Source of the DNA: a virus | Direction: 5' to 3' (one strand) | DNA length: 64,000 bases | IMG/VR virus record: IMGVR_UViG_3300005613_000025 | Coordinates: 1-64,000 of that record | Part shown: piece after piece, positions 15,309-48,739 of the stretch | Layout: each line of letters starts with the position of its first letter | Numbering within the stretch: position 1 is the stretch's first letter | Program-made: the position numbers and the translations under genes | Notes under the pieces: model-generated | What the model saw: the letters and a program-made list of their open reading frames with translations, nothing else | Databases searched by the model: none | Told to the model about the DNA's origin: nothing

Positions 15309-16253
15309 ATGGCGATGTTAAGTTATTTTGGAGGCAAGAGTTCTAAAGATTTTATGGAACTTATCAATTCACGGATACCGAAAAGTGGAATAAAAACATA
15401 TGTTGAACCGTTCAGTGGTTCATTTGCAACTTACATGGATGACAAGTCGATATATTTCGATCAGGTCATATACAATGATAAGAACCGACATCAGGTGAAT
15501 CTTTATAGATGTTGTAAAGATCCTGAGAAGTTACTTGAAGCAATTGATGAGTTGAAATCAACTTTATTGAAGACCGACATCACTGACCTTGAAGAAAAGC
15601 GTATTTTCTATCGTGGTATATACAAAGAGTATATTCAGAATGATTTTCTTGATGATATGAATTTCGAGATCGGTGATTTCAAAAAGGCGGCCATTTATGC
15701 ATTTTTGATAACGTCTTCTTTCTCAGGTGTTTATCCAAGAGGTGGTGGATTTGTTGGATTCAATAAGAAAAAGGATGAGTTGAAGCTTGAAGTTCTCGTC
15801 AGAAAATTGAAAACAAACAAGTATGGTAAAAAAATTGAATCCATAACAGCTTTTCATAATATGGATTTCGAAGAGTTGATAAGGAAATATGATTCAGATG
15901 AAACTTATCTTTATCTTGATCCACCGTATTACAGATTCGATGAAAAGACCGGTGGTGATGATGCCAGAAGATTGTTCTGGTACGGAAGTGATTCTGATGA
16001 TGTTTTCGGACCGGCCTCTCACAGAAGATTACTTGAACTCATAAAGGAGACAAAGGCAAGGTGGTCACTTTCGTATTATTACTTTCCATTGCTTGAAGAA
16101 TTGTTACCAAAGGATCAATATTTCTGGTTTGAAAAAGAAGTAAGAAGAAGTTCAGCACAAGGTGGTAACAACTCAGATTCAAAAAAGGTTGCAGAAAAAG
16201 GAGTTGAACTTTTGATATGTAACTATGATCCAACGACAGGTGAAAAAATATGA
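15309..16253 (+). CDS. DNA adenine methyltransferase (Dam/D12 class)
   Basis: YFGGK, YVEPFSGS, YND, YLDPPY, ELLICNY. Confidence 0.92.
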   Translation: MAMLSYFGGKSSKDFMELINSRIPKSGIKTYVEPFSGSFATYMDDKSIYFDQVIYNDKNRHQVNLYRCCKDPEKLLEAIDELKSTLLKTDITDLEEKRIFYRGIYKEYIQNDFLDDMNFEIGDFKKAAIYAFLITSSFSGVYPRGGGFVGFNKKKDELKLEVLVRKLKTNKYGKKIESITAFHNMDFEELIRKYDSDETYLYLDPPYYRFDEKTGGDDARRLFWYGSDSDDVFGPASHRRLLELIKETKARWSLSYYYFPLLEELLPKDQYFWFEKEVRRSSAQGGNNSDSKKVAEKGVELLICNYDPTTGEKI

Positions 16254-16951
16254 CATATGAAGAGGAAATAAAGGATTGTATCGCGGCCAAGTTCAATGAA
16301 TCTGAATTTATTGAGTGTGGTGATATCAATAAAAATATCCCGATAGCACAATCAATGCAAGTATCTGTTCAACTTGATAGGAATATCGATTTTGATTATA
16401 TTACACATCTTATTGATGTTGCAAAACAGAATTTTTCGATCGAGATAAATAAACTGATATTGAAAGACTTTAAAAAGCTGAGTCCCTTTGTAATTGATCG
16501 AAGAGATTCGAAAGATATGAACACATATGAGTTATCGAATTCTGTTTTAAGGGAATTTGTTTATATCTGTAAAGGCAAGGGTCGGTCAATAACATCTTCA
16601 AAAGTTGTCATCGAATTACTTGAAACATCTTCTCAATATGAATTTTATAAGAACACCAGTTTGTCAAGTTCTCTGAGATGTGTTGGTAGAATTTATGATA
16701 TTGGTATTTTTGTTGATTCATATCTTGCTTGGTCAGAAAATTTTATTATGCATTTCAGCTCTCTCGATTACAATATCGAATTGGATAATGTTACATTTGG
16801 TGATGATCATGTTTTATCGGTCGGTATAAAATATGGATATCAAATTGACGATCCTAAGATGATATACATATTCACAGATGAACTCAATGATAATGTTGAT
16901 GTACTTGTCAGGCATCAAAGACGGGAAAAGATAAAAAAGTTACTGAACTGA
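16250..16951 (+). CDS. Divergent truncated major-capsid-protein paralog with C-terminal tag
   Basis: LRCVGRIYDIGIFVDSYLAWSENFI vs MCP LYPVGQIGDIQIYVDPYMKYNDNRI; ends QRREKIKKLLN. Confidence 0.65.
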   Translation: MTYEEEIKDCIAAKFNESEFIECGDINKNIPIAQSMQVSVQLDRNIDFDYITHLIDVAKQNFSIEINKLILKDFKKLSPFVIDRRDSKDMNTYELSNSVLREFVYICKGKGRSITSSKVVIELLETSSQYEFYKNTSLSSSLRCVGRIYDIGIFVDSYLAWSENFIMHFSSLDYNIELDNVTFGDDHVLSVGIKYGYQIDDPKMIYIFTDELNDNVDVLVRHQRREKIKKLLN

Positions 16952-17008
16952 AAAAAGAAACCCTGATAAAAAGTCTATCAGGGTCGGTCATAGAATGCTA
17001 TTCTATGA
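16951..17008. terminator. Terminator hairpin between convergent genes plus a second hairpin
   Basis: ACCCTGATA/TATCAGGGT with minus-strand U tract; TCATAGAAT/ATTCTATGA. Confidence 0.7.
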
Positions 17009-17012
17009 GTGG

Positions 17013-17420
17013 TTATCGTTTCATTTGTTCTTTAAGATAGTCTGCTGCATCATATAATCCAAGTCTATTTGCAACAAAAGTAAGTTCTTCCAATTGAGTT
17101 TCTGTATCATATTGTGCCTGTCTTTGTTGTGGTATGTTTTTCTTGACCATTTCGATTATATCTGAGTCATAGACGAATGATTCTTCGAACTGATCAAGTC
17201 GATCCTCGACATCTTCTATACCTACATCATCCAATTTCTTGGTTACTTTATTATATTTGAGTTTTCTTTCTTTTTGGCCTACTTCAAGTTCATTCTTTTT
17301 GAATGATCGTTTCATTTTTTTAAGTTCTTCTTTTTCGTCTGGGAGGCTCTGTAAGAAGTCTTTGAAATTTGCCATTTTTCTGTCACCGGCATTGAATGTT
17401 GGTTGATTATCTTTATACAT
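17013..17420 (-). CDS. Hypothetical protein
   Basis: ORF in a minus-strand operon. Confidence 0.65.
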   Translation of the reverse strand: MYKDNQPTFNAGDRKMANFKDFLQSLPDEKEELKKMKRSFKKNELEVGQKERKLKYNKVTKKLDDVGIEDVEDRLDQFEESFVYDSDIIEMVKKNIPQQRQAQYDTETQLEELTFVANRLGLYDAADYLKEQMKR

Positions 17421-17437
17421 GTTACTATATATTATTT

Positions 17438-18085
17438 TTATTTTTCAAAAAATTTAATTATCACTGAACTTCCATCTATCGTTTTTTTCATATCCACACC
17501 GTCCATATCAATTTGCCTCAATAGAAGTTTCAATCTTCTGTCAGTGAATGTCCATGTTGAACTGATCAATGTCAGAGTATTCTCTGATTCATCAAATTCG
17601 GTCCAAGTGTCATTTGAGAAGTCAGATTTTGATTTTAAAAGTCTTGATCTGATCTCAAGATAGATATCGTGTAATTTATTCTCTTTCTTTTCAACTTCCT
17701 TGTCTGTAAGTATATAGATATCTATTACTGATATATACTTACTTGTTCTTAACTTTACTCGTGTATCGAAATATTTTGTGATATTGGATATGGCAGAAAA
17801 AACATCCTTGTCTTTATTCGGTATCAGATATAATTGTTGTCCAACACTCTTTGGTGCCATGTTCTCCATTAAGCTTATCGATATCTTGTGACAGAATTTA
17901 TCCCTATTACTTGTAGGTTCTCTGAATAATAGTCCAGATCCATCGGATTCTATACCTTTTTCAAGTGAACTTTCTGAGAAGTAACCTTTTTGGTGATCAT
18001 ACTTGATCAATTCATCATCCAATTCTTGAAGTATTATATCCTCTACATGTGAGGAATCGATCGATTCATTGAATTTTCTGATCAT
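17438..18085 (-). CDS. Hypothetical protein with capsid-targeting-like N-terminus
   Basis: MIRKFNES. Confidence 0.7.
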   Translation of the reverse strand: MIRKFNESIDSSHVEDIILQELDDELIKYDHQKGYFSESSLEKGIESDGSGLLFREPTSNRDKFCHKISISLMENMAPKSVGQQLYLIPNKDKDVFSAISNITKYFDTRVKLRTSKYISVIDIYILTDKEVEKKENKLHDIYLEIRSRLLKSKSDFSNDTWTEFDESENTLTLISSTWTFTDRRLKLLLRQIDMDGVDMKKTIDGSSVIIKFFEK

Positions 18086-18087
18086 TT

Positions 18088-18780
18088 TTATCCTTTTAAT
18101 TTTTTGTCAAGTATTTTTGCAATATTCGATCCTATCATAAAGTGAATGTTCTGAAGTGAATCAGATTCCTCTGTTGTTATCTCGTCCATGAATTTAAAGT
18201 TGAATCTGTATGTATCAGGTTCTTCATCATCACTTTCTCTGTCAACCTTATATATTGACACATCGAATTTGTAATTGTTATTTATGTTTATCTCAAAGTC
18301 AAATGTGGTTGAGTCACATGGTTGTGTTTTGAATTTCGGTTCATATTTTACATCGAAAACCGAATATTCGGTTATTTCTGCTCTTCTCATGTAATAATTC
18401 AAGAACATGGCCGGTGCTTCGATAAAGTCACTCAATATCTTGATATCATCACCGAAATTGTTCTGTTCGACAATATTCGCTATTTTATTTTTCATGTCTA
18501 TCACATTTTGAAAGTCCATTTTATGGTAAATGCAGTTTATGTCATATAGATAGGTGAATGACTTATCTATCAATAACCGTTTCTCAAGATCTGTCTTGAA
18601 TATGAACTTTGTGTGTATTATCATTGTTTCTTCAACTGATAACCCATGTATCGTTATCACAAGGCGATAGAATTTCTCATCATTTGAAATCTCGTAAACG
18701 GTCTCAAGTGATTGTGCCATCCCATCTTCTTCTTGGAAAATGTCTTTGAATGCTTGTTCTACTTCTGCTATTCTTATCAT
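18088..18780 (-). CDS. Hypothetical protein
   Basis: 230-aa ORF coupled to its neighbours. Confidence 0.7.
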   Translation of the reverse strand: MIRIAEVEQAFKDIFQEEDGMAQSLETVYEISNDEKFYRLVITIHGLSVEETMIIHTKFIFKTDLEKRLLIDKSFTYLYDINCIYHKMDFQNVIDMKNKIANIVEQNNFGDDIKILSDFIEAPAMFLNYYMRRAEITEYSVFDVKYEPKFKTQPCDSTTFDFEININNNYKFDVSIYKVDRESDDEEPDTYRFNFKFMDEITTEESDSLQNIHFMIGSNIAKILDKKLKG

Positions 18781-19520
18781 TTTTTTGATTCAAATTGTTT
18801 ATCGTATGATGTTATTTTCATATTCACTATTTTCTCTATATATCCATTTCTTCTCAGCAATTTGAATACGAGATTTCCTGTTCCGAATTCCCCGCTTTTC
18901 AATCCCTTCTTTCTTTCGGATTTTATTTTTTCCCATGTTTTCTCTAAGTCCTTTATGAAATCTTTATATTCTTTTTTACTTTTATCAAGATCGTCTATTT
19001 CTTGCATTATCGGTTTTGCAACTTTCAATATTTCATCTTCATCAATATCAATTTCTTTCTGCTCAGGCTCTTCGACCCACTTATCATTCATAAGTGAGTA
19101 TATTCCTGTTGATACATGTGGTTCATTCACATCCTGTATATAAACCTCAACATCATATCCTTCGATTTTGATATCATGTCGATCGTTCCAAACGGATCTT
19201 GCATTATCGACCATTTTTTTGACAAGTTCAATGTCTTTATTCACTTTTTTGAAATCGATCAATATATGAAGGTCGAAATCTGAATATTTCTTATCCCAAT
19301 TGTAATTGGCAAGTGATCCTGTGAGTATTATATCTTCGATCTTAGCATCAAGTTCAAGTGGTCTATAAAAATCTCTTGCAATTTTCAAAAGATCCTTTTT
19401 GATATCCTTTTTTATTTCCATATCATTCCAAACCTTGGTGTCCAAATTGTTCTTGATTTTGAATGATTTCACTGGAGCAAGATCACTTTGATTGAATTCT
19501 AAGAATTTTTTAAGATGCAT
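18777..19520 (-). CDS. Nucleotidyltransferase (Pol beta superfamily)
   Basis: TGSLANYNW...SDFDLH, DVEVY; N-terminus MHLKKFLEFN. Confidence 0.8.
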   Translation of the reverse strand: MHLKKFLEFNQSDLAPVKSFKIKNNLDTKVWNDMEIKKDIKKDLLKIARDFYRPLELDAKIEDIILTGSLANYNWDKKYSDFDLHILIDFKKVNKDIELVKKMVDNARSVWNDRHDIKIEGYDVEVYIQDVNEPHVSTGIYSLMNDKWVEEPEQKEIDIDEDEILKVAKPIMQEIDDLDKSKKEYKDFIKDLEKTWEKIKSERKKGLKSGEFGTGNLVFKLLRRNGYIEKIVNMKITSYDKQFESKK

Positions 19521-19607
19521 TTGTTCGATTTCTTTTTAATATATATAAAATCCATTAAACGACTTTTTCGATTTTTAATGTATAAATAAAAAATATAACT
19601 AACTGAT

Positions 19608-20885
19608 ATGCAAACACTTAATGATGTAAAAGACAAAAACATCCTGAGTGACATCTTCGACAATGAAATAATCGTGTTTGAAGATGTCCAAGGCTCAAAG
19701 ATATGGGTCAATTGGAATGGTAAGGAATTCACCATAAAACCAAAAAGAATTTCAAATGAACCAATAAACCTTGTAGATCTGGCGATGCAGAACTTTTACA
19801 ACCCTGCAATGAATTACTTTAATTCTCTTTCAGATCGTGTCAAATCATTGATGCCAAAGAAATGGTGGTTCTGCTTTGAATATTTCCCAGATCAACAACC
19901 GGCCAATATAGATTATAATAGAATACCAAAGAATGGTCTTGTACTTACCGCAATAAACAAGAACAGAAAATATGACTATTCAGTTGAGGAACTTACAGAA
20001 TACGCCAGATTATTCGAGGTTGATCATCTTCCTGTGATATACAAAGGCACTTTGAATGATGATATGAAACAAGGAATTGAATATTTTCTTAATACCTCAG
20101 AAGAGGATCTTGAATATGTTTTCGGTGAAAAGAATTTTGCCTTTTTCTTTTATCGACTATTGAACCCGAATGAGGAAGGATCATTTCTAATGGGGAATGA
20201 GTTTCAAGATAATATTGAAAAAATAATAATCAGGATCAAAGACCAAGAAATGAGTTTTCAGATACTGAATCCCCTATATAAACGAATTAGTCAGGATAAT
20301 GCAACTGATTTTGTTGAGATATACACTCTCATATTGGTAAACTTTCTCACATTCTGTCAGGGTGTTGATATCTCTTCGATAAAACTTGATGGAAAATCGC
20401 GTGATGAAATGTATATTGAACTGGTGTGTAAGCTGTTCAATAAGTATATGAGTGATGTTAAGGATGATCTTGTGAACTTTGATTTCACGATACCTGAATT
20501 TTGGACACAGGATAAATTCAAGATAAATCGTGAACTCATTAAAAACAAAAGAACATCAAGTATAATTGATGAATCCGAAAAGATGGAGTATTATTTCAAG
20601 ATAATTCTTTCGTCATTCAATAAGAAACGAAAGAAACCTATTGGTATATTCACCGATAACACGGTAGAACTTTTCAATTCATATGTTGATAAGATAGATA
20701 GGACCATTGATAAGAAGCTCAAGATAATGCGTGATATGCATCTTGCTCAGACCGGTCTTGTTGACTTTGGATCATTCATTGATTTTGATGTTGAAACAGA
20801 CTCACAGGGACAAGTTTACCCATCTGTATGGGATGAAATTGAAAGTGGATCAATGGATAAAAAGAAGAAAGGCTTTAAAAAATAA
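19608..20885 (+). CDS. Ligase/nucleotidyltransferase-fold protein, possibly catalytically altered
   Basis: FEDVQGS at the position of the EKxDGS motif, FEY, LPVIYKG, IEKIII. Confidence 0.45.
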   Translation: MQTLNDVKDKNILSDIFDNEIIVFEDVQGSKIWVNWNGKEFTIKPKRISNEPINLVDLAMQNFYNPAMNYFNSLSDRVKSLMPKKWWFCFEYFPDQQPANIDYNRIPKNGLVLTAINKNRKYDYSVEELTEYARLFEVDHLPVIYKGTLNDDMKQGIEYFLNTSEEDLEYVFGEKNFAFFFYRLLNPNEEGSFLMGNEFQDNIEKIIIRIKDQEMSFQILNPLYKRISQDNATDFVEIYTLILVNFLTFCQGVDISSIKLDGKSRDEMYIELVCKLFNKYMSDVKDDLVNFDFTIPEFWTQDKFKINRELIKNKRTSSIIDESEKMEYYFKIILSSFNKKRKKPIGIFTDNTVELFNSYVDKIDRTIDKKLKIMRDMHLAQTGLVDFGSFIDFDVETDSQGQVYPSVWDEIESGSMDKKKKGFKK

Positions 20886-20896
20886 TCTTATTATGA

Positions 20897-22099
20897 ATGT
20901 CAAGTATAAAAGACCTGTCAAAGGAAATTCCGGTCATACCATTTCGGAAAAAAGAATTCTTTCTTCAATTCGTGCCAGAGAAGATGATGCATCTTTTGAA
21001 TGTTAAAAAGGTAACTTATAAGAACAAGAATCTCAAATCTGCATACTTGATCGACATTGTTCATGGTATGATTTTGAAATATTATTTCAAAAATGAAAAT
21101 GAATTTGCACTCAATACATTGGTTTTGAAAGAAAGATATGGATACCTTTATAATTATTATGTTGATTATCTGATAGATATAGGAACGATCAAATTGGTCA
21201 GAAAACACTTAGCTGGTGTCACTTCAAGGAAATATGAGATATGTCAGGAGGTATTGAATGGTGACATGCACCGTTGGAAGAATAATGATACGATACTTTT
21301 GAAAAAATATCACAATCGATATCTGAAATTTGAACTGAGTAAGACCGATATTATTCCCGATCACATAAAGGTGAAATTGATAAATGACCTTTTTTCAGTC
21401 ACAATAGACGAGTCAAGGTCCTTATTTTTCTTGGATTCACTCAAAGAAAAGGATAACATATATAAACGAAACAGATATTCTGTTCATTCGATTTCAGAGA
21501 AGCACATTTTTTATCATTTTGACCATTATGGTAGAATGCACACCAATTTCACGATATTGAGATCATTCATAAGAAAAACATGTCTTTTGATCAACAATGA
21601 GGAAACATTCGAGATCGACATTCCAAACTCACAACCCATGCTTCTTGCTAAATTGATAGATGATTCAATGACAAAATGGGTGAAAAAGGACGAGTTGGAA
21701 TTTTTCAAGGAGCTTTTAAGATATGGTAGTTTCTACGAATTCATTGCAGATAGATTGAACATAGAAAGAAAAGAGGCAAAGAAAATAACATATAAGGTTC
21801 TTTTCGGAAAAAATCACTTCAATTCAAAGGCTGATCGACAATTCAAGGAATTTTTTCCAACGATACACAATTTCATAAAACTTTATAAGAAGGAACATAA
21901 TGATTACAAGGTTCTTGCATATACTTTACAAAGGAATGAATCAGAGTTGATATACAAAAGGATCATTGGTGAAATAATGAAAGCGAGTGATGTGAATGTC
22001 ATAACAGTTCATGACTCGATAATCGGACCGTCATCACAAAGAGATCTGATAACTGGAATTTTTGAAAATCAGATGAAAAGGTTCTTTACTTTTCTGTGA
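20897..22099 (+). CDS. Minimal family A polymerase-like protein
   Basis: GRMH, EIDIPNSQP (motif A), RKEAKKITYKVLFG (motif B), LQRNES, ITVHDS (motif C). Confidence 0.65.
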   Translation: MSSIKDLSKEIPVIPFRKKEFFLQFVPEKMMHLLNVKKVTYKNKNLKSAYLIDIVHGMILKYYFKNENEFALNTLVLKERYGYLYNYYVDYLIDIGTIKLVRKHLAGVTSRKYEICQEVLNGDMHRWKNNDTILLKKYHNRYLKFELSKTDIIPDHIKVKLINDLFSVTIDESRSLFFLDSLKEKDNIYKRNRYSVHSISEKHIFYHFDHYGRMHTNFTILRSFIRKTCLLINNEETFEIDIPNSQPMLLAKLIDDSMTKWVKKDELEFFKELLRYGSFYEFIADRLNIERKEAKKITYKVLFGKNHFNSKADRQFKEFFPTIHNFIKLYKKEHNDYKVLAYTLQRNESELIYKRIIGEIMKASDVNVITVHDSIIGPSSQRDLITGIFENQMKRFFTFL

Positions 22100-22129
22100 A
22101 GTATGATATTCAAAATTAATATATAGAAC

Positions 22130-22666
22130 ATGTTCAACTTGAAAGATCCAAATATTTCATACATTGTTGTCTCAGGTGATGTGAATGCGTGTAGCAACTA
22201 CCTTTATTCGAGAGAAACATATCAGATATTGGAAATGAGTTCATATTTCCAAGGTGAATTTGATAGATCTTTGTTTGCTTTCACGAATATTGATAATACT
22301 GACATCAGAAGGGATGCCATGTCATTGATGATGCATTTCAATGAAGATCATATCATTGTGAAATATCATGGTGAGTCCGCGCCAACAAAGATCACTCCTG
22401 ATGGTAAGGAACATCCAATGGGTGTTTTGATGTATAACACAGATTCTGAAAAAAAGTCATACATATTTGAAGGAATTTCATTCAGTTTCATTGAACAACA
22501 ACTTTATTATTTTCCAAAGTCAAAGAAAGATTTCAAGCAAGGTATGGTAGTTGAATGTTACTCGAATAATGATTGGATCGAAAAACGAGTATTTGATGTT
22601 GATACTGAATATGATAGCATGTATCACCTTCTGATAAAGTATAAGAAGATCAGGATACCTGTCTGA
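22130..22666 (+). CDS. Hypothetical protein
   Basis: ORF with TATATA-N4-ATG start. Confidence 0.65.
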   Translation: MFNLKDPNISYIVVSGDVNACSNYLYSRETYQILEMSSYFQGEFDRSLFAFTNIDNTDIRRDAMSLMMHFNEDHIIVKYHGESAPTKITPDGKEHPMGVLMYNTDSEKKSYIFEGISFSFIEQQLYYFPKSKKDFKQGMVVECYSNNDWIEKRVFDVDTEYDSMYHLLIKYKKIRIPV

Positions 22667-23168: not shown

Positions 23169-23222
23169 ATTACAAATATAAGGAAAGAAAAAAAATGATA
23201 TATAAAAATAAACAATTATTTT

Positions 23223-23405
23223 ATGAAAGACGAATTATTGAAATCAAATGCATTATCCACAGAGGAAGTGTCAATGTTAAGAGAAAAGTTCATTCACGAG
23301 TACTCAAAGAAAATGGGTTGGAACTCAAAGGAACTTACCACACAACAGATGTTGGAAATTGCCACTCAGAAAGAATATAAGAATCCAGGATTAATTTTGG
23401 GATGA
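23223..23405 (+). CDS. Small hypothetical protein
   Basis: ORF with upstream TATATA box. Confidence 0.55.
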   Translation: MKDELLKSNALSTEEVSMLREKFIHEYSKKMGWNSKELTTQQMLEIATQKEYKNPGLILG

Positions 23406-23930
23406 TGTTCCCAGTATTGACTTTAATTTTTCTTTTCTTTGATGTTTCTTGATAATATCATTCATGTTTGTCTTGATATTTGTTTTCATGTCAGTGACGG
23501 TGTAATGTTTCAACCGTTCTTCATCATTTCTTAAATAGCTCAATGATATTGTGTTGTATCTGTATGGTTCTGCATCAAAGAAAAGTGTCTCGTCCCAATT
23601 CTTATATTTCTCAGGTGTGTTCGTATTTTTCACATAGATTATAGGCAGTTCAATCTTTTTCAAATTTGAAAGACACCATTCGATCGATTGTGGTTCTATC
23701 AGTATGAAATCACATCTGAATGAATTGTTTTTTATTGATTCGAATATTTCAGTATTTGTGAATTTTATTGTCTTAATTGAAGAACTTTCAGACATTCTGG
23801 TTCTATTTTCGTAGAAATAAACAAAAGTATTTCCGAGAAGATCGAGAAGTTTAAGGTATTCTGAAAGAGATGATACTGATCCGAAGTGTGATTTATTGTA
23901 AAGAAAAATAGTTCTATTTTTTATTTCCAT
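23391..23930 (-). CDS. Hypothetical protein with C-terminal tag
   Basis: Ends HQRKEKLKSILG. Confidence 0.6.
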   Translation of the reverse strand: MEIKNRTIFLYNKSHFGSVSSLSEYLKLLDLLGNTFVYFYENRTRMSESSSIKTIKFTNTEIFESIKNNSFRCDFILIEPQSIEWCLSNLKKIELPIIYVKNTNTPEKYKNWDETLFFDAEPYRYNTISLSYLRNDEERLKHYTVTDMKTNIKTNMNDIIKKHQRKEKLKSILGTSSQN

Positions 23931-23977
23931 TAAACAAATTTATTTATACTTATATAATACAAAAATAACACAATGTT

Positions 23978-24721
23978 TTGAAAATACCCTTTTTATTCAC
24001 CTATATAATTCCTTTCACACACTCACACGAAAGGATAACAAATCTCAAAAGGACCATCGAATGGTTATCTGGTTTCTCGAATGTTGAGATAATAGTTGTA
24101 GAGCAATCAAAGAGTCCTATGTTACACACATTTTCAATGCGTGGATTCAAACATATTTTCACACAAACTGATATGCCATTCAATATCGGATGGGCATATA
24201 ACATCGGTATAAAGAACTCAACATCTGATGTGATAGTTTTCGGAGATTGGAAAACAAAAATGAATCCAGACGATATGATACGATCACTGAATCAACTTCA
24301 AAATAATCAAGTGGTCATATGTAACTCAAAGACAGTAACACTACACCCACATGAATTCGACAATGATTTTCAAAAACTGGGTATGTTGAATAGAAATAAC
24401 GATAAATCTCATATATCACAGGCAATTGTTGCCATGAGAAAGGATGCTCTTGAAAGATTGTCATTGTGGCCTGAGGACTTTTTTGAAGGAGACCATGTGT
24501 ATCAACTTCAAGACATCAAAATAAAACAGCTCACATCTTATCAGGAAATGCCATTCACAGCTTTCAGATACATTGAAAGTGAGATGAATATAAGTCAGAT
24601 AAATGAATCAAGAAACAACATGTTGATCGAGAATTATAAGAAAATGGATAATTCAAACTTTGAGAGGAGTATTGCATCAACAAGGTCAAAAATAGGACTG
24701 AAAATGAGATTTACAGCATGA
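23978..24721 (+). CDS. Glycosyltransferase-like protein (GT-A fold)
   Basis: YIIPF, EIIVVEQ, FNIGWAYNIG; the DxD motif is degenerate (FGDWK). Confidence 0.65.
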   Translation: MKIPFLFTYIIPFTHSHERITNLKRTIEWLSGFSNVEIIVVEQSKSPMLHTFSMRGFKHIFTQTDMPFNIGWAYNIGIKNSTSDVIVFGDWKTKMNPDDMIRSLNQLQNNQVVICNSKTVTLHPHEFDNDFQKLGMLNRNNDKSHISQAIVAMRKDALERLSLWPEDFFEGDHVYQLQDIKIKQLTSYQEMPFTAFRYIESEMNISQINESRNNMLIENYKKMDNSNFERSIASTRSKIGLKMRFTA

Positions 24722-24921
24722 TGACCTACTCAATGACATATGAAAGATCTAAGATAAACGATCTATCACAATATGGATTCGATGTTAGTGATGAACTTAC
24801 TAAATTGTTATCAGAGGAGTTGGCCAAAGAAATTGATCAAGTGATTCTTTCCAGTTTAGGGATAGACACTTTTGATGAAAAATTAAAAAAATTAACAGAT
24901 AGGTTGTATGGAAAAGAATAA
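24718..24921 (+). CDS. Capsid-protein fragment (backbone-helix region) with FDEKLKKL tail
   Basis: RSKINDLSQYGFDVSDELTKLLSEELAKEIDQVIL vs MCP RTEIEDIKANTGMDIVQKMESILVNELSQVISRQIV. Confidence 0.65.
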   Translation: MMTYSMTYERSKINDLSQYGFDVSDELTKLLSEELAKEIDQVILSSLGIDTFDEKLKKLTDRLYGKE

Positions 24922-26020
24922 TGTTGATAGACAATATTTTGAACTTGCTAAGAAAATTCTCTATAAAGGTCGAAAAAAATCAGACCGAACAGGAACTGGA
25001 ACGGTATCAATATTCGGGTCCGAGATGAGATTCGATATGTCAGAAGGATTCCCACTACTTACCTCAAAGAAGGTTTTCACAAAGGCAGTTATACACGAAC
25101 TTATTTGGTTTCTGAGAGGTGACACCAATATAAAATACCTTTTAAAGAATGATGTTCATATTTGGGATGGTGATGCTTACAAGCACTATACGAAAACTCC
25201 TCTTGATAAATTAAGTGAAGATGAGTGTAAATTGGTATCAGCCTCGCATAAGTTGTTTGACCATTTTGATAAAGATGAATTCATTGAGAAAATAATGACA
25301 GATGAAAGTTTCTGTAAGAAATTTGGCGATCTTGGTCCGATCTATGGACATCAATGGAGAAATTGGGGAGGTTACTCTGAAACACATCTCTCAAATGAGA
25401 AAGATGAGAACGGCTTTTTGAAGTATTATGAAAAAAAGATACATGGTTTTGATCAAATAAAGAAATTGTTGGATGACCTTAGAAACGATCCAGATTCAAG
25501 AAGATTAATAGTTTCTGCATGGAATGTTGATGCACTCGATGACATGAAATTACCACCCTGTCATTATGGGTTCCAATGTTATACTTATGAAATGGACCTT
25601 CAAGAAAGGAGATATGAATGGTGTATGTCATTGGGTAAAGATATTTCGTACTCAGAAGATGTCACACACGAATGGCTTGACGACATTGAATTTCCAAAAA
25701 GAAAGATCAGTTTGAAATGGCATCAGCGTTCTGTCGATTTTTCATTGGGTCTGCCTTTCAATATTGCGTCATATGCGATTCTGTTACATTTGATAGCAAA
25801 TGAAGTTGGTATGTTACCTGACGAATTGATATTCACCGGAGGAGACACACACATCTATTTAAATCAAATTGATGGTATCAAAGAGCAATTGAAACAGGAG
25901 ACATTTGAATTACCAAGTATCGAACTCAGTAATGATTCCATATTTGATGTGAAATTCGAGGATATAAAGATAGTGAATTACCGATCATCGAAAAGGATCA
26001 GTATGCCACTTTCAAATTAA
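24908..26020 (+). CDS. thyA: Thymidylate synthase
   Basis: DRTGTGT, ELIWFLRG, DSRRLIVSAWN, LPPCH, QRSVD..LGLPFN, GDTHIY. Confidence 0.97.
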   Translation: MEKNNVDRQYFELAKKILYKGRKKSDRTGTGTVSIFGSEMRFDMSEGFPLLTSKKVFTKAVIHELIWFLRGDTNIKYLLKNDVHIWDGDAYKHYTKTPLDKLSEDECKLVSASHKLFDHFDKDEFIEKIMTDESFCKKFGDLGPIYGHQWRNWGGYSETHLSNEKDENGFLKYYEKKIHGFDQIKKLLDDLRNDPDSRRLIVSAWNVDALDDMKLPPCHYGFQCYTYEMDLQERRYEWCMSLGKDISYSEDVTHEWLDDIEFPKRKISLKWHQRSVDFSLGLPFNIASYAILLHLIANEVGMLPDELIFTGGDTHIYLNQIDGIKEQLKQETFELPSIELSNDSIFDVKFEDIKIVNYRSSKRISMPLSN

Positions 26021-26036: not shown

Positions 26037-26534
26037 ATGGAGGAATTAAAAGAACAACAGCAATCAATATATGATTCAATTGTAGAACAATTGAAAGATG
26101 TTGACACAAAAGACCTGAGAGATGATATTGAACAATCTCCAATGACAAAAATAGTCGAACAACAGAAGGTTTACTTTTGGATAAGATTATACATAAATGA
26201 TGTTGATGATAAATTGGATGTTGGTGACGATATCGATATCATCTATATGGATGATGAATCACTTGACACCAAATTCATTACATATGGTAAAAAGAATGCA
26301 ACCCGTGACATGGACGAAGATATCATAAATTATGAACAGGAAGATGATACAAAATGTCTTTGTTTGATGGTTGATGAGGATCGTGTGAAGAGAAGTTCAG
26401 ATGACATTCCTTTCATAAGAACCTTGTTCAAAACATCACCATATTATCAAGAACAGGTTTATAGAAAAAAAGATCTTGTATTCAAAAATAAAAGAACCGG
26501 TGAGGTATATGAATATTATCAAGTTGATTTTTAA
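26037..26534 (+). CDS. Hypothetical acidic protein
   Basis: ORF in operon. Confidence 0.6.
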   Translation: MEELKEQQQSIYDSIVEQLKDVDTKDLRDDIEQSPMTKIVEQQKVYFWIRLYINDVDDKLDVGDDIDIIYMDDESLDTKFITYGKKNATRDMDEDIINYEQEDDTKCLCLMVDEDRVKRSSDDIPFIRTLFKTSPYYQEQVYRKKDLVFKNKRTGEVYEYYQVDF

Positions 26535-26707
26535 TGGATATGAAAGAAAACGATGAAAAAATATTGTTGGGCAAAAAACCAATGGAACAAGGATATGTTT
26601 ACGCACCTTATATAATCAAACATGAGGTTAGCATAATGTATAGCTCACAATTCGATTTCGATGAACGACTTAAAAAACTTTGTGAAAAATTATATAAAAA
26701 AAAATGA
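26534..26707 (+). CDS. Capsid-protein C-terminal fragment (57 aa) with FDERLKKL tail
   Basis: MDMKENDEKILLGKKPMEQGYVYAPYII...FDERLKKLCEKLY vs MCP DNRIVLGRKNNPDQPGLIFVPYL; coupled to both neighbours; not in the ORF track. Confidence 0.65.
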   Translation: MDMKENDEKILLGKKPMEQGYVYAPYIIKHEVSIMYSSQFDFDERLKKLCEKLYKKK

Positions 26708-42034: not shown

Positions 42035-42044
42035 ATTATTTCAA

Positions 42045-42770
42045 TCATATTATTTCAACATCAATTGCGCTAGTCAGTTCGATAACTATTGATGACAAGT
42101 CATTTGTTCTGAATATGCCGATGAATACCCGATTTCTGATCCTGCTAGTGAACACTGGAAAGGTTTCTCCTGGGTTTCGGACCCATGTTATATCTTTTAA
42201 TTCTTCCCATAGTTTATTCATCATACTTTTTTTGATTTTATCTGATGTTATAACTAAATGATTTCTATCCAGATTCTTAGTGTGATTGATAGACATATCC
42301 TTCAAATTGAATTCTTTTTCAAGATATTCTGTAAATAACTTTTTATTGAGTGTCAAAGTGTTGTCTTTAATAGAGAATGAATTCGATGCTTTATCCCACC
42401 ATTTTTCGAAAATGAACAGGATAGCGATCTTATTCATGTTTTCGAAATTTACCCATACCTTATCGAAATTATCTTCGATCTTGCCTATACTTTCTTTTAT
42501 GAGTTCGACTATTTTCAGGCTGTTACTCATTTGATTTATAACTCTATCAACATCACTGACAGATTTTGCGAACATGTTCGATTCACCTATCTGTTTATCA
42601 AGTGTCACTAAAATGAGATGCTCTTGATTTTCGTATTTTATCTCATAATCGGTCAATTCATCCTCGACATCCAACATAGCTTCATTTACGAGTGTACGCA
42701 ACTTTCTTTTCATTTCTACCTTATCTTTAAGGTCACTGGATTCATTGAACTGACTGAATTTGTGTATCAT
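42045..42770 (-). CDS. Hypothetical protein with capsid-targeting-like N-terminus
   Basis: MIHKFSQFNES. Confidence 0.65.
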   Translation of the reverse strand: MIHKFSQFNESSDLKDKVEMKRKLRTLVNEAMLDVEDELTDYEIKYENQEHLILVTLDKQIGESNMFAKSVSDVDRVINQMSNSLKIVELIKESIGKIEDNFDKVWVNFENMNKIAILFIFEKWWDKASNSFSIKDNTLTLNKKLFTEYLEKEFNLKDMSINHTKNLDRNHLVITSDKIKKSMMNKLWEELKDITWVRNPGETFPVFTSRIRNRVFIGIFRTNDLSSIVIELTSAIDVEII

Positions 42771-42834
42771 TTATCAATTTTATTTTGTTACTCTATATAT
42801 TAAAACCAAACTACAATAACCAACTATAATTCAC

Positions 42835-44505
42835 ATGTCAATAAGGAGAGATGTAAATAAATATAAGCCAAGAAAAGAGCAACAAGAGTGTTTGGATTTC
42901 ATTGATTCAAATTATAAGAAAAATCCACAGGATAAGATATATCTTTTGGATCTTCCAGTAGGTGTGGGAAAGTCACATCTTGCTATGATGATATCACAAT
43001 GGTATTTTGATAATGTTAACAGGATGGCAAGAGTTGATGTCATCACGAATTCAAAGATATTGCAGGATCAATATTCATCGACCTATAATTCAATTCAAGA
43101 CCTGAAAGGAAAGGATAACTATGAATGTAAAGAATATGGATGTTCCTGTGCGCAAGGTGCAGAGTTCAATAAATTGAATAAGACGAAATGTGATGATTGT
43201 CCTTATCAGTATGCAAGAGAGTCATTCATAAATGGTAAAATTTCATTGACCAACTTTTATCTTTATGTACTTTATGCACTTTACATACCAAAGGTGTTGG
43301 AAAATAGAGCAGCATCTGTTCTTATAGTCGATGAGGCTCATTCATTTGATGAGGTCATGAGTAATTTCATATCAGTAAAGATAACTGAGAAAACCATTAA
43401 AAAGATGAAACTCACCGATGAGAGGAAAATGCTAAGTGAGTTGAAGTCGGTCAAGACGATATCAGAATATATCAAATTCTTGAAGAAGCTTGAAAAAACA
43501 ATTTCAAATTCAATGAATGACATTACACGATCAATGATGGGCAGATCACGAAGCATCACAAAAGATAAAAGAAGTGTTAAATTATCAGTGATACTGGAAA
43601 AAGGTCCGAACAGTGATGTGAAAATGATGAATCTCATATCTGACCTTGATCAGTTGAGATCAAAGATCGAGATATTTTTAAAAGAGTATGAGAATGATCC
43701 TGACAATTGGATATTGGAATCAAATTGGAATGAAAAGACCAAGAAGGTTGAACTTTCACTTGAGCCGATATGGGCCTATGAATATCTTGATAAATATGTT
43801 TTCTCAAAATACGATATGGTCTTTCTCATGTCAGGAACAATATTGAACAAATCTCTTTTCTGTGAAATAAATGGCCTCGATGTTGATCGGTCAGTATATT
43901 ACTCGATCAATTCACCATTTGAAGTAAGTAAAAGACCTATATTTTATATGCCGCTTGGTAAAATGTCATATAAACAAAAAGAAACAACATTCAAGAATTA
44001 CATACCATATATACATAAGATACTGAAAAAGTACAATGATAAGAAGGGGATCATCCACACAAATTCCTTTGAATTGTCAAAATGGATCGAGGATTCAGTC
44101 AAGGATGATAGATTGATGTTCCATGATTCATCAAATAAAGATCAGGTCCTGAACGAACATTATGACTCTACTAAGCCGTCAGTGATTGTCTCACCATCAA
44201 TGGATACCGGTGTAAGCTTCGATGATGATAAGGCAAGATTTCAGATCATTGCAAAGGTTCCATATCCTACACTCGCATCTAAAAAGAACAAGATGCGTCA
44301 AAAAATGAAACCTGATTGGTACATATGGAGAACCGTGTCCGGCTTGATACAAATGACCGGAAGAGCTGTAAGATCAGTGGATGATCATGCCGATACAATT
44401 ATAATAGATGGAGGATTCGGTGATGTAATGAGATTCAGTTCACATTTTTTACCGAAATGGTTTCAAAATGCAATAAGATCGGTCAATATCAAAACAAAAG
44501 TTTGA
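42835..44505 (+). CDS. DinG/XPD-family SF2 helicase
   Basis: PVGVGKS, Cys cluster, DEAH, MSGT, KVPYP, QMTGRAVR. Confidence 0.92.
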   Translation: MSIRRDVNKYKPRKEQQECLDFIDSNYKKNPQDKIYLLDLPVGVGKSHLAMMISQWYFDNVNRMARVDVITNSKILQDQYSSTYNSIQDLKGKDNYECKEYGCSCAQGAEFNKLNKTKCDDCPYQYARESFINGKISLTNFYLYVLYALYIPKVLENRAASVLIVDEAHSFDEVMSNFISVKITEKTIKKMKLTDERKMLSELKSVKTISEYIKFLKKLEKTISNSMNDITRSMMGRSRSITKDKRSVKLSVILEKGPNSDVKMMNLISDLDQLRSKIEIFLKEYENDPDNWILESNWNEKTKKVELSLEPIWAYEYLDKYVFSKYDMVFLMSGTILNKSLFCEINGLDVDRSVYYSINSPFEVSKRPIFYMPLGKMSYKQKETTFKNYIPYIHKILKKYNDKKGIIHTNSFELSKWIEDSVKDDRLMFHDSSNKDQVLNEHYDSTKPSVIVSPSMDTGVSFDDDKARFQIIAKVPYPTLASKKNKMRQKMKPDWYIWRTVSGLIQMTGRAVRSVDDHADTIIIDGGFGDVMRFSSHFLPKWFQNAIRSVNIKTKV

Positions 44506-44910
44506 TCATTTGAAGCTATCGAATCGAACTATACTGGATTCATTCTTCTTCTTTTTCTCAATTGCCTTTCTCAATCCTTCTGGAAGCTTCTTTTGTTTTG
44601 CAGTTAATCCTTTTGATTTTCCTTCTTCTTTATCTTCCATTGAATCTTCGATCGCTTTTCCTCTTGATTTCTCATACTTAGAGATTTTCTTGTTCTTATC
44701 GAGGTCAGCTTTTTTTGGATTTTTCAATCCTGATTTTTCGTACGATACTTCGTTCTTTTTCTTTTCATCAACCTCGACAACTTCTGATGCCTCAGACTCA
44801 CAGGTATCACAACCTTCTTCTTCAAGTTCGGATATTTCATCCTCTTCTTCGTATTCGTCTTCAAATTCTGGTTCTACATAGAATTTTTCAAATTTAGTGA
44901 GGTGTTTCAT
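44506..44910 (-). CDS. Charged low-complexity protein, probably head-associated
   Basis: MKHLTKFEKF; ADLDKNKKIS. Confidence 0.55.
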   Translation of the reverse strand: MKHLTKFEKFYVEPEFEDEYEEEDEISELEEEGCDTCESEASEVVEVDEKKKNEVSYEKSGLKNPKKADLDKNKKISKYEKSRGKAIEDSMEDKEEGKSKGLTAKQKKLPEGLRKAIEKKKKNESSIVRFDSFK

Positions 44911-44979
44911 AATAAAAGATTTAATTTTAATGTATATATATTATTCTAAAAATAGAAAATGTGATTTTATATATATTTC

Positions 44980-46212
44980 ATGAAAAAAATTTTCGATTAT
45001 TACCAGTTCATAAATGAGTCGAAATATGTGAAGGTTCCATTTGTTTTCTCAATAGATTTCGGAAAAACAATAAGAAAAATAGATGAGTTGATCGGAACAG
45101 ATGTTGCCAATAAATTACTTGATAGAACAATCGATTTCAGGTCGGATATTTCTTTGATCGACCTATCAGATGATCCGAACATGGTTGAATTCACAACTGC
45201 AGATAAAATATCACAAAAGTTCAATACAACTGATTTTGTCCTATTAGGTCTTAATATATCACCTTTGGTCTATTCTGGATCTAAAATTTACAATGAACAA
45301 AGATCCAAGATGAGGATAGGAAAATTCCTTAAAAAAATATTAGGTGCTGATATCAATGACCAAGAAGTTGAAAAGTTCTCAAAGGCATATGAATCACAGA
45401 ATCGAGAAGATTCAAAATATTTCGAGATATATCGAGGAGTTGATATCAAAATAGGTTATGATACTGAAAATTTTGTTGAAGCGGGATCAAGTGAGTTGCA
45501 CAATTCATGCATGAATGATCGATTTTATGAATTGGAATTCTTTCTTGGGTGTCCTGTCATGTTACTTACTTTGAAACAGAATGAAAAGATATGTGCAAGA
45601 GCGCTTATTTGGGAAGTTGAGGTTATTGATAGGTCAGGAACTTTATCCGGCAAATCCAAAAAATACAATTTCATGGATCGTGTGTATTACATTGATACAA
45701 AAGACCTATACAGGTTTCAGAGATGGTCCAAGGAAAATAAAGTGTTGTACAAGAGCGATAATAAAACAGGCCCATTCGAAAAAATAACAATGCCTGATGG
45801 AACACAAACATTTCTGAATATGAAATGTGAGATAAAAATCGATCTTGATGAGTGGCTTGATATAGATAATCCTTATATGGTTCCTTACATTGACACTCTC
45901 TGCCATGGTCAGAAAAATCAACTTAGTAATTTCATACCATCAGATGGAAAATATTATGTGTTTCAAGAAACAGATGGTACCGTATTGGTGCAATCGAATA
46001 TGAAAGATGTAAATGGTGAAAGAATACCGGAATCAGAATCACACAATTATGTGATGTCGAATTATCAGCAAGGACTTGTTCATGTAGATGATGTCGAATA
46101 TGTTGAATATGAAGCTGATGGAAAAATTATGAAAGATCCGATTGATATAGAAGTTCTTAAACAGTCTGATGATTTTAAACAAATAGATAATAAATGGATA
46201 AAAGTCAAGTAA
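44980..46212 (+). CDS. Conserved phage protein with capsid-targeting-like N-terminus
   Basis: MKKIFDYYQFINES; NSCM...ARALIW...MDRVY...PYIDT. Confidence 0.6.
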   Translation: MKKIFDYYQFINESKYVKVPFVFSIDFGKTIRKIDELIGTDVANKLLDRTIDFRSDISLIDLSDDPNMVEFTTADKISQKFNTTDFVLLGLNISPLVYSGSKIYNEQRSKMRIGKFLKKILGADINDQEVEKFSKAYESQNREDSKYFEIYRGVDIKIGYDTENFVEAGSSELHNSCMNDRFYELEFFLGCPVMLLTLKQNEKICARALIWEVEVIDRSGTLSGKSKKYNFMDRVYYIDTKDLYRFQRWSKENKVLYKSDNKTGPFEKITMPDGTQTFLNMKCEIKIDLDEWLDIDNPYMVPYIDTLCHGQKNQLSNFIPSDGKYYVFQETDGTVLVQSNMKDVNGERIPESESHNYVMSNYQQGLVHVDDVEYVEYEADGKIMKDPIDIEVLKQSDDFKQIDNKWIKVK

Positions 46213-46221
46213 AATGTTAGA

Positions 46222-46854
46222 ATGATGCTTGATAAAATAAAAGAAAATTTCAAATACAGTGAATCAATTCACGGATCATTTTATTATTTGAATGAATCAA
46301 AAATCAATAAACACATTTTTGATGTAAATGTTCTGAGCTTTAAAAACTTCTACGCCAACCTCATACTTTATGTGAATGATAACATATTCGAACTGGGCGA
46401 CGAATCTATTGAAGAATTGAGAAGCTTAATGGATCAAAATGACATAGACAGTAAGTATTACAGGAACTCTTTTTTTGGAAAAAAACTGATGAACAAATAT
46501 CACAGTATCAATAGAGAGGATCAAAGAGGAATGAAAATGGGAAACATGGTCATACAGATCGGACGGGAGATAATGGAATCAGTGAGACATAACTATCATG
46601 ATGTTACATGTATTGATACAGACATGATAATCTCTGAGTCAACAATAGAAATTGACATAGAATTACCAATTGAGAAGGAAAAATACGAATGTATCAGGTT
46701 TATAAATGCAAAAAGGTATGTCTTTAAGGAGTATGGAGAATCAGAGATCAAAGTAAGAGGGTACACCAGAAGAGACCTTCAGAAAACCTTGGGTTACCAA
46801 CAAGAAATGATGAAATTATTAAGAAAGCAAAAGCTTAAAAAAATCTTAGAATGA
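46222..46854 (+). CDS. Degenerate family B polymerase-like fragment with C-terminal tag
   Basis: SFKNFYANL, CIDTD, AKRYV, KVRG; ends LRKQKLKKILE. Confidence 0.5.
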   Translation: MMLDKIKENFKYSESIHGSFYYLNESKINKHIFDVNVLSFKNFYANLILYVNDNIFELGDESIEELRSLMDQNDIDSKYYRNSFFGKKLMNKYHSINREDQRGMKMGNMVIQIGREIMESVRHNYHDVTCIDTDMIISESTIEIDIELPIEKEKYECIRFINAKRYVFKEYGESEIKVRGYTRRDLQKTLGYQQEMMKLLRKQKLKKILE

Positions 46855-47045
46855 AAAAAAGATGTGAAACATGTGCTCATTTTAGAGAATACTTCCATAT
46901 GGATACAATATATTCGGACGAGTATATATGTAAATTACATGGGGACTCTGCACTCATAACACATCCTGATACACAATGTTGTGAGAAGCATATAAGTGAT
47001 TTAGGTCACAAACGAAAAGAAAAATTAAAAAAACTTCTTGATTGA
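46851..47045 (+). CDS. Small Cys-rich protein with C-terminal tag
   Basis: CETC...C...CC; ends KRKEKLKKLLD. Confidence 0.6.
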   Translation: MKKRCETCAHFREYFHMDTIYSDEYICKLHGDSALITHPDTQCCEKHISDLGHKRKEKLKKLLD

Positions 47046-47076
47046 TTTCTATTATAATAGAAAAATATAAATTAAA

Positions 47077-47397
47077 ATGGCAGAATCAGTAACAGATAAT
47101 AACTTCTCAGAATTCATCCAGAATAAAGTAGTTCTGGTGGATGTATTCACAACTTGGTGTGGACCATGTAAGATGCTAGGACCTATCATAGAAGATGTTT
47201 CAAATCACTACGAGAATGATGAAAAAGTGAGTATAGGAAAGATGAATGGTGAGGAAAACAGAGAAACTATCACACAACTACAAGTGAGAAATGTTCCTAC
47301 GATCATATTTTATAAGGATGGTCAAGAAGTTGAGAGAAAAGTGGGTGTTGTTCAAAAAAGTGAATTGATCAATATCATTGATAATCTTAAAGATTAG
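47077..47397 (+). CDS. trxA: Thioredoxin
   Basis: WCGPC. Confidence 0.95.
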   Translation: MAESVTDNNFSEFIQNKVVLVDVFTTWCGPCKMLGPIIEDVSNHYENDEKVSIGKMNGEENRETITQLQVRNVPTIIFYKDGQEVERKVGVVQKSELINIIDNLKD

Positions 47398-47402
47398 TCT
47401 AA

Positions 47403-47957
47403 ATGGATGAGTTCTTAGAGATATTGAACGACCATTCGATAATAACGATGAGTTATAATTCATCATATGAAATAAAGGTCAACAGCTTTATCAAGTATTT
47501 TTACAATGATCCTACATTTTTCTCGGATATGGATATCGATGAGATATTTGAGAAACTGAATGAAAAAAAGTTCAATCGATCTATTGTGATATCATCGATA
47601 GTTGGTAATGAGAAAACAATAGTCATAGATCTACCATCATTGCATCTACCAGATGGTTTGCCTCTTAATTCGAGAAATCAACATAAAACTCTGATGCACC
47701 GATTATCTGAACTTATTTTCATTAATGATGAAATAAAATGGAGGTTCATAATTCTCTCACATAAATATACATCTTTTGGCAAGCATAATATTTTAGGTGG
47801 TGAGCAGCTTTTATATCACTCACATCATGTGCTCGATATTGATGAAGATATCAACATAATCAAATCCAGAAATTTCTCACCGAAATATCTTGAAAAATCA
47901 GATAAATTACTTAGAAAGATCAAATTGAATGACATACTCAATGAAACTGAAAAATAA
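47403..47957 (+). CDS. Degenerate RecA/DnaB-fold-like protein with C-terminal tag
   Basis: TIVID, GGEQLLYHS, IIKSR; no P-loop; ends LRKIKLNDILNE. Confidence 0.4.
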   Translation: MDEFLEILNDHSIITMSYNSSYEIKVNSFIKYFYNDPTFFSDMDIDEIFEKLNEKKFNRSIVISSIVGNEKTIVIDLPSLHLPDGLPLNSRNQHKTLMHRLSELIFINDEIKWRFIILSHKYTSFGKHNILGGEQLLYHSHHVLDIDEDINIIKSRNFSPKYLEKSDKLLRKIKLNDILNETEK

Positions 47958-48378
47958 AAAAGCATATTTTGACTTTGATATAGAACAAGAATATGTTTGT
48001 GGTATCAAACTTGTTGGATCCGAGGTCAAATCCGTTAGAATGAAGATGATATCATTCTCAGACTCATATGTTCTGATAGATAATGAGAATCAGGTGATCC
48101 TTAGAAATCTCAGTATTGCAAAATATGAGAATGCATCATTTGACAATCACGATGAGAAGCGGGATAGGATACTTCTTTTGAATAAAAAGGAGATTGAAAA
48201 GATATCTCACTCACAGATGGCAAAGAACCTTTCTATCATTCCTCTTGAAATATTCACAAAAGGAACACTTATAAAAGTGAAGATAGGTCTTGGCCGTGGT
48301 AAAAAGAAGTATGATAAGAGGAATTCAATTAAGGAAAAGGACATAGAAAGAGAAGTAAAAAGAAATGAGAAAAATTGA
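47941..48378 (+). CDS. smpB: SsrA-binding protein
   Basis: NKKAYFDF, GIKLVGSEVKS, RDRILLL, GRGKKKYDKR. Confidence 0.95.
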   Translation: MKLKNKKAYFDFDIEQEYVCGIKLVGSEVKSVRMKMISFSDSYVLIDNENQVILRNLSIAKYENASFDNHDEKRDRILLLNKKEIEKISHSQMAKNLSIIPLEIFTKGTLIKVKIGLGRGKKKYDKRNSIKEKDIEREVKRNEKN

Positions 48379-48739
48379 TATTGAATTTGGTGATGTAACA
48401 TCTGAGTTCTTGGACAGAAGTAGTATAATGGCTCGAAGTCTTATAAAACAACTTATACGAGAAGGTATAAACAAAGATTTCTCATCAGTTCTACTATCAC
48501 CTGGTGTCATATTAGAGGTCGATTTTCCAAGATACAGTTTGATACCATCCGAAAATCAATCAACCGGTCAAATAATGATGATAGGTATGTGTGATGGTTT
48601 TTTCATATTCAAGGATATGGTTGGATTTTTAGACCATTCACATCAAGCATGTTTATTTGACACATATGATATTCAAGTAGTATCAAGTATGATATTGAAA
48701 GATATCAGAATGAAAAAAATGAAAGATATACTTAATTAA
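48365..48739 (+). CDS. Possible capsid-protein fragment with C-terminal tag
   Basis: TGQIMMIGMCDGFFIFKD vs MCP QGQLYPVGQIGDIQIYVD (weak); ends IRMKKMKDILN. Confidence 0.45.
   Translation: MRKIDIEFGDVTSEFLDRSSIMARSLIKQLIREGINKDFSSVLLSPGVILEVDFPRYSLIPSENQSTGQIMMIGMCDGFFIFKDMVGFLDHSHQACLFDTYDIQVVSSMILKDIRMKKMKDILN

Follow-up and report, generated by a model that had tools for sequence, protein, structure and literature searches.

In the viral record IMGVR_UViG_3300005613_000025, three genes that lie outside the head module (16250–16951, 24718–24921 and 26534–26707) are very probably selected descendants of T4-type capsid proteins, each of them carrying a portable peptide tag. The window analysed here comprises positions 1 to 64,000 of the record, an IMG/VR fragment of 91.7 kb with 32.7% G+C for which CheckV estimates a completeness of 16%. 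A preliminary description of the window had proposed that four scattered genes, these three and 48365–48739, encode fragments of the phage's own major capsid protein (MCP). All four open reading frames (ORFs) exist as described. The capsid relationship, including a profile match to gp23, was found for the first three but not for 48365–48739, and two of the three turned out to be something other than pieces of the resident MCP. The genes concerned are the following.

3809–5614, plus strand: resident MCP, 601 amino acids (Pfam Gp23, E 1.5e-26), the reference in all comparisons.
16250–16951, plus strand: mini-HK97 protein, 233 amino acids, with a predicted minimal capsid fold (residues ~1–213) and a C-terminal tag helix (216–232), as judged by hhalign, AlphaFold2, VIA-align, synteny and the ratio of nonsynonymous to synonymous substitution rates (dN/dS).
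16919–16948, plus strand: class I tag of the mini-HK97 protein, RREKIKKLLN followed by the stop (tail comparison).
24718–24921, plus strand: mini-gene of 67 amino acids, a probable gp23/gp24 spine-helix piece with a class II tail (FDEKLKKLTDRLYGKE), from Pfam, tblastn and a family profile; its start overlaps the upstream stop (ATGA).
26534–26707, plus strand: mini-gene of 57 amino acids, the probable MCP C-terminal strands (MCP residues 526–565) with a class II tail (FDERLKKLCEKLYKKK), from blastp and hhalign; it overlaps both neighbours (TAATG and ATGA).
48365–48739, plus strand: tagged protein of 124 amino acids after SmpB, with the class I tag RMKKMKDILN; it is placed here by its tail only, with no demonstrated capsid relationship.

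The resident MCP shares 61% of its residues with the MCPs of LR756502 (642 kb) and LR745206 (635 kb), both uncultured phages, 50% with that of the 735-kb LR756501/3, and 31% with those of Lak phages.

The product of 16250–16951, formerly read as an MCP fragment, is predicted by hhalign, AlphaFold2 and VIA-align to be a whole minimal HK97-fold protein. As a single sequence it matches the MCP at noise level (E 0.06–0.08), and a control, the hydrophobic ORF at contig positions 90829–91014, scored the same. Since a chance hydrophobic ORF does equally well, the identity of the gene is settled by the family profile alone. An exhaustive profile-free search yielded 19 clusters of 217–270 amino acids, and the alignment of these 19 members matches MCP residues 353–575 with an hhalign E-value of 3.6e-16. 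It carries the MCP-like motifs ITN..LQDS, Y.IG.L....I.VDPYM.W.DN.I and E.TF.PR. The hidden Markov model (HMM) of the family, run on the contig proteome, has the MCP as its best non-self match (1.3e-16), followed by the 67-residue gene (0.007). The AlphaFold2 model reaches a predicted local distance difference test (pLDDT) score of 87 and a predicted template modelling (pTM) score of 0.81. Its top matches in Foldseek and VIA-align are all capsid proteins or encapsulins, the closest structure being T4 gp23 (7vrt) with Z 11.4 and a root-mean-square deviation of 3.5 Å over 187 aligned residues. These alignments span model residues 1–213, and the tag helix (216–232) lies outside every one of them. 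The core HK97 fold is present in the model, with the E-loop and the N-arm much reduced. A query of the ESM Atlas with 16250–16951 gave no usable match. At 233 amino acids it ranks with the smallest natural HK97 folds in the T4 lineage.

A search with a sub-alignment of the 19-member family revealed more than 25 mini-HK97 loci, all of them tagged, and the tag is also present in 19 of 19 aligned relatives (RDxKIDxILN). In at least 10 contigs the gene order runs protease-scaffold, MCP, peptidase, NADAR, (LAGLIDADG), D12 methyltransferase, mini-HK97 and then convergent genes. In the window and in three further contigs, those in which both genes are present, mini-HK97 is found 7–12 kb 3′ of the MCP gene on the same strand. 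Constraint on the protein is weaker than on its neighbour: in the same genome pairs its dN/dS is 0.16–0.52 as compared with 0.02–0.11 for the adjacent methyltransferase, its dN is 3–7 times higher, and its identity to the window copy falls to 23–27% where neighbouring genes keep 55–70%. The surroundings of the gene in the window are as follows.

12124–12660, plus strand: NADAR-domain gene, the operon partner upstream of the mini-HK97 gene (Pfam NADAR, E 1.1e-30; synteny).
15309–16253, plus strand: D12-class DNA methyltransferase whose stop overlaps the mini-HK97 start (Pfam, E 2.1e-17; synteny; ATGA overlap).
16959–16985, no strand assigned: hairpin terminator with a 12-bp stem, just 3′ of the mini-HK97 stop and between convergent genes (sequence).

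The NADAR and methyltransferase genes form a conserved operon in which mini-HK97 comes last. NADAR proteins and DNA methyltransferases are typical counter-defence functions, and the operon may be a counter-defence cluster. Just 5′ of the methyltransferase lies a LAGLIDADG remnant of 110 amino acids (14976–15308), kept in several relatives. Homing-endonuclease genes also occur around the MCP gene (366–1505, 5726–7759 and 11185–12054), and a protease-scaffold fusion (1573–3768) is located upstream of it.

The gene 24718–24921 had likewise been assigned to the phage's own MCP, but it is closer to T4-type gp24. Alone it matches Pfam Gp23 (PF07068) at positions 160–194 with an E-value of 1.2e-4 and 22.1 bits, just below the cut-off of 24.4, and all nine aligned members of its family match the same Pfam entry (best E 2.8e-6). 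When the family profile is compared with the PDB (177,635 sequences), the top three matches are to T4 gp24 residues 185–223, the long spine helix (E 0.013). A tblastn search gave weak matches in 817 phage records, mostly of T4-type phages; among the matches listed, all fall on capsid vertex or head genes, with 38.6% identity over 57 residues. The match of the family to the MCPs of its own clade is weaker (hhalign E 0.0066, 24% identity, MCP 368–401). The gp23/gp24 consensus in its generic form is thus better preserved in this piece than in the resident MCP, and the piece did not arise by recent copying of that MCP. Orthologues of 66–80 amino acids are found in LR745206, LR756502, six IMG/VR huge-phage contigs and several metagenome clusters. 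They end in the basic tag KRRxNSINKIFK, and the dN/dS of the family is 0.27–0.44 in the less saturated pairs.

By its sequence, the 26534–26707 piece is predicted to be the last P-domain strands of the MCP. A pairwise blastp comparison with MCP residues 526–565 gives an E-value of 1e-8, and the value is 5.7e-6 against the 140 other contig proteins. A profile built from this gene, two close homologues and two analogous ORFs (from LR756501 and LR745206) matches the clade MCP profile over MCP residues 526–584 with an hhalign E-value of 4.1e-11 and a probability of 97%; the gene alone has no Pfam match. The 57- and 67-residue products cannot form an HK97 fold, since each of them holds one structural element. 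That the two small ORFs are exons of one gene split around the thymidylate synthase gene was ruled out, since each has its own tail and stop and since the relative L059 carries the first piece without the second. The thymidylate synthase itself (24908–26020) has 370 amino acids against a Pfam profile of 266 positions and thus contains an insertion of about 100 residues; in L059 it has 430 amino acids.

The fourth gene, 48365–48739, shares only its tail with the capsid-derived genes and is, judged on sequence comparison, not demonstrably capsid-like. Its scores against the MCP are E 13–15 among the contig proteins, and those against the mini-HK97 profile are 0.11 and 0.47, none of them significant. 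Searches by tblastn against phages, in 5.8 billion proteins, by hhalign and by HMM gave nothing significant either. Its AlphaFold2 model is unusable (pLDDT 35), and the gene that follows SmpB in relatives is unrelated to it. SmpB, the partner of transfer-messenger RNA (47929–48378), and a thioredoxin (47077–47397) are both encoded here and kept in the 635–735-kb relatives.

As the preliminary description had noted, all four ORFs are translationally coupled to non-structural neighbours. They overlap these neighbours by ATGA, TAATG or 14 nucleotides, and the genes next to them include glycosyltransferase, thymidylate synthase, D12 methyltransferase and SmpB. The three capsid-derived genes are located after the methyltransferase, after the glycosyltransferase and after a gene of no assigned function beside thymidylate synthase, respectively. 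An alternative genetic code or read-through was rejected, since the neighbouring frames differ and the ATGA overlaps leave no in-frame continuation. Neutral decay is excluded by intact orthologues in many genomes together with the dN/dS ranges of 0.16–0.52 and 0.27–0.44; conserved across many huge-phage contigs, intact and with dN/dS below 1, the genes are not debris. The constraint on them is moderate.

The basic amphipathic tail reported for the four genes is indeed shared by them, but it is not peculiar to capsid pieces. Two forms occur. The class I pattern is R-x-x-K-(L/I)-x-x-(I/L)-L-x-stop. The class II variant, FDE(K/R)LKKLxx(R/K)LY, had been reported as common to two of the ORFs; this proved real, and in a six-frame translation of the 91.7 kb it is unique to the two small ORFs. 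For counting, the motif R..[KR][LIMV]..[ILMV][LFIY] was required to lie no more than 7 residues from the C-terminus. It is C-terminal in 10 of the 141 contig genes (0.12 expected), a number reached by none of 2000 composition-preserving shuffles, whereas internal matches occur at the level of chance (3 vs. 2.5 expected). In seven of the ten genes exactly one residue follows the motif. The tag is borne by about 8% of the phage genes, including unrelated small proteins. Synonymous sites in its codons vary and conservation ends at the stop, which shows that selection on it acts at the level of the peptide and rules out a DNA element such as a promoter or a slippery site. A PDB sequence search with the tag peptide found nothing, and the protease-scaffold protein of this phage has no tag at its C-terminus. 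Further tag-bearing genes in the window are these.

14409–14753, plus strand: tag-bearing gene, 114 amino acids, ending RRMKLRDILN.
23391–23930, minus strand: tag-bearing gene, 179 amino acids, ending RKEKLKSILGTSSQN.
46222–46854, plus strand: tag-bearing gene, 210 amino acids, ending RKQKLKKILE.
46851–47045, plus strand: tag-bearing Cys-rich gene, 64 amino acids, ending RKEKLKKLLD.
47403–47957, plus strand: tag-bearing gene, 184 amino acids, ending RKIKLNDILNETEK.
52113–52589, plus strand: tag-bearing gene, 158 amino acids, ending RNIKINQIFK.

For 46222–46854, DTD and KRY motifs seen by eye had suggested a fragment of a DNA polymerase; this reading was dropped, as Pfam, PHROGs and the genomes of relatives do not support it. 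Tag density can be much higher in some relatives; for example, six tag-ending ORFs lie within 12 kb of a 152-kb IMG/VR contig. In LR745206 and LR756502 the ORF between thioredoxin and SmpB, at the position of 47403–47957 and similar to it by eye only, has a tag-like LRDIKINQIL near residue 60 rather than at its C-terminus; the order of the parts looks permuted.

Comparable sets of genes are seen in the related huge phages. LR745206 has two adjacent ORFs with a common basic tag, of which the one of 75 amino acids is a clear MCP C-terminal piece and the one of 50 amino acids appears, when read by eye, to be derived from the MCP; a third tagged piece is located elsewhere in that genome. In LR756501 (~145.1–146.1 kb) two adjacent MCP-piece ORFs of 101 and 78 amino acids share the acidic tail LDPYGEE[DN]WxN. 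About 700 bp upstream of them is an ORF with LAGLIDADG-like motifs (seen by eye, with no family scan). The same genome has a separate MCP-like paralogue of 479 amino acids and, at ~276.4 kb on the minus strand, an ORF of 196 amino acids that looks like an internally deleted MCP (N-terminal arm, spine helix and last strands, with the middle gone). Tails that match within a genome and differ between genomes would be expected from co-evolution with a common reader.

We suggest the following explanation. The capsid-derived part of each protein would mimic a surface of the MCP and so occupy whatever normally binds that surface; candidate partners are host sensors of the capsid, assembly factors and other capsid subunits. 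By its tag the mimic would be docked, as would the other tagged proteins, onto a putative reader common to them all. We regard this combination of mimicry and docking as slightly less than evenly probable, and the explanation as a whole, with its capsid ancestry and selection, as having a probability of roughly 0.5. Several points weigh against it. Docking is proposed only from the position of the tag, its portability and the peptide-level selection. A helix or hairpin of 35–40 residues may not fold or bind on its own. Values of dN/dS of 0.2–0.5 are also typical of weakly constrained accessory genes. Finally, mini-HK97 could be structural or compartment-forming and would then need an explanation separate from that of the small pieces. 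The fast evolution of mini-HK97 and its NADAR/methyltransferase neighbourhood are compatible with a role in conflict but do not show one.

A more specific proposal, raised already in the preliminary description and doubtful in our view, is that the proteins are decoys for capsid-sensing host immunity. The mimics would soak up sensors of the conserved HK97 core or of its best-conserved epitopes, and a sensor captured in this way may be handed over by the tag to a common sink. Several defence families, namely Avs7, Avs8, Avs10 and Dsr1, sense MCP core folds (PMC13581612). The 3–7-fold excess in dN of mini-HK97, its place directly after the NADAR and methyltransferase genes in conserved synteny and the better retention of the generic gp23/gp24 consensus by the 67-residue piece than by the resident MCP would all fit such a role. 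The neighbourhood argument, however, is guilt by association, and a decoy might set off the sensor by its very likeness to the trigger. The literature on capsid paralogues, decoys and truncated HK97 proteins yielded no published capsid-derived decoy.

Another possibility, which we consider unlikely, is that the proteins are capsid-assembly modulators or are encapsidated. In this case the scaffold-like tag helix would bind the interior of an HK97 shell, and the pieces might cap, time or size the assembly of the phage's own capsid or of a competitor's. The 80alpha SP and SaPI1 CpmB proteins have a 16-residue C-terminal capsid-binding element in which Arg and Ile are essential (PMC5644958). The tag resembles it in being predicted to form an amphipathic helix at the C-terminus, with hydrophobic residues and a conserved Arg. 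Furthermore, mini-HK97 retains the best-conserved A/P-domain motifs of the MCP (YxxGxLxxIxVDPYMxWxDN and TFxPR) and lies downstream of the MCP gene on the same strand. Yet it is genes for nucleotide metabolism, a methylase and a glycosyltransferase, rather than head genes, to which the ORFs are coupled, the tag is missing from the phage's protease-scaffold protein, and the hydrophobic spacing of the tag differs from that of RIIK. A tag present on 8% of the genes would also imply a very large capsid cargo.

It is quite improbable that 16250–16951 is a vertex (penton) protein equivalent to gp24 and that the small ORFs are leftovers of further copies of the capsid gene. T4 has exactly such a paralogue, and mini-HK97, with its complete predicted fold, its T4 gp23 and gp24 among the best structural matches and its conserved position downstream of the MCP, could be taken for one. 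However, a protein of 233 amino acids that is without the long E-loop and N-arm, shares its tag with non-structural proteins and drops to 23–27% identity beside well-kept neighbours is a poor fit, and the 479-residue paralogue of LR756501 is a better penton candidate. The small ORFs, for their part, are conserved families with dN/dS below 1. The least probable reading, largely refuted, is functionless debris of partial MCP duplications driven by homing endonucleases or recombination: homing-endonuclease genes flank the MCP, the 14976–15308 remnant lies nearby and a LAGLIDADG-like gene (by eye, with no family scan) lies near the LR756501 fragments, but orthologues with intact frames and dN/dS below 1 occur in many divergent genomes, the tails are conserved as peptides with differing codons, and the resident MCP has not recently given rise to the 67-residue piece.

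Extending the mimic-and-docking explanation, one may speculate that the clade runs a modular system of tagged mimics, although we think it rather unlikely to hold in full. It would consist of a library of small proteins, among them the minimal capsid fold and the isolated capsid elements, each with a specific host or viral partner, and of one C-terminal helix that routes them to a common reader, for which a protease, the procapsid or some compartment may be considered. Those members that derive from the capsid would then disarm immunity that senses capsids, or damage the capsids of competing phages. If the proteins are mimics, they would represent a new strategy of counter-defence or inter-phage competition, aimed at the phage part that is sensed by many bacterial immune sensors, and would be natural probes for finding out which surfaces of the capsid are recognised by sensors or serve in assembly. 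With about 8% of the genes bearing it, the tag suggests a putative hub in the biology of the largest phages.

T4 gp24 and the encapsulins are known examples of additional genes with a capsid fold. For conserved genes that stand alone, encode just one piece of a capsid protein and join a portable tag to it, we found no published description in the literature on capsid paralogues, capsid decoys and truncated HK97 proteins. The viral pseudosubstrate and mimic decoys, the T4 Gol peptide with Lit and CapRel-type sensing are comparable in that a viral copy of a sensed surface could compete for the sensor. In the capsid-sensing systems MCPs are known triggers (PMC13581612). Mini-HK97 is also of encapsulin size (the encapsulin shell protein has ~260–300 amino acids) and matches encapsulins structurally with Z 9.4–9.6, and the encapsulin cargo-loading peptides are likewise one C-terminal peptide on many unrelated proteins. 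In contrast to encapsulins, the shell-like protein itself is tagged here, no adjacent operon of cargo enzymes was found, and the tag sequence is unrelated to known loading peptides.

The closest relatives are T4 gp23 and gp24 (PF07068; PDB 7vrt, 5vf3, 6uzc and 1yue). Three of the four genes are homologous to them in sequence, the core fold of 16250–16951 is the same as that of gp23 (Z 11.4), and, as with gp24, a capsid fold is encoded once more downstream of the MCP. The T4 proteins, however, are full-length virion proteins of more than 400 amino acids from the head module, whereas the genes described here encode a 233-residue minimal fold and single-element pieces of 57–67 residues, coupled to non-structural genes and provided with a portable tag. 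For the tag, the nearest counterpart is the helix-and-hook (RIIK) element of the 80alpha scaffold, copied in CpmB of the satellite SaPI1 (PMC5644958; PDB 6b0x and 6b23). Both are short C-terminal amphipathic helices, predicted in the case of the tag, with Arg and hydrophobic residues, and both are portable between unrelated proteins. They differ in motif and spacing and in distribution, RIIK being found on one or two scaffolds whereas about 8% of the genes carry the tag. The known role of the RIIK element is docking onto an HK97-fold protein, with CpmB mimicking the capsid-binding peptide of the scaffold.

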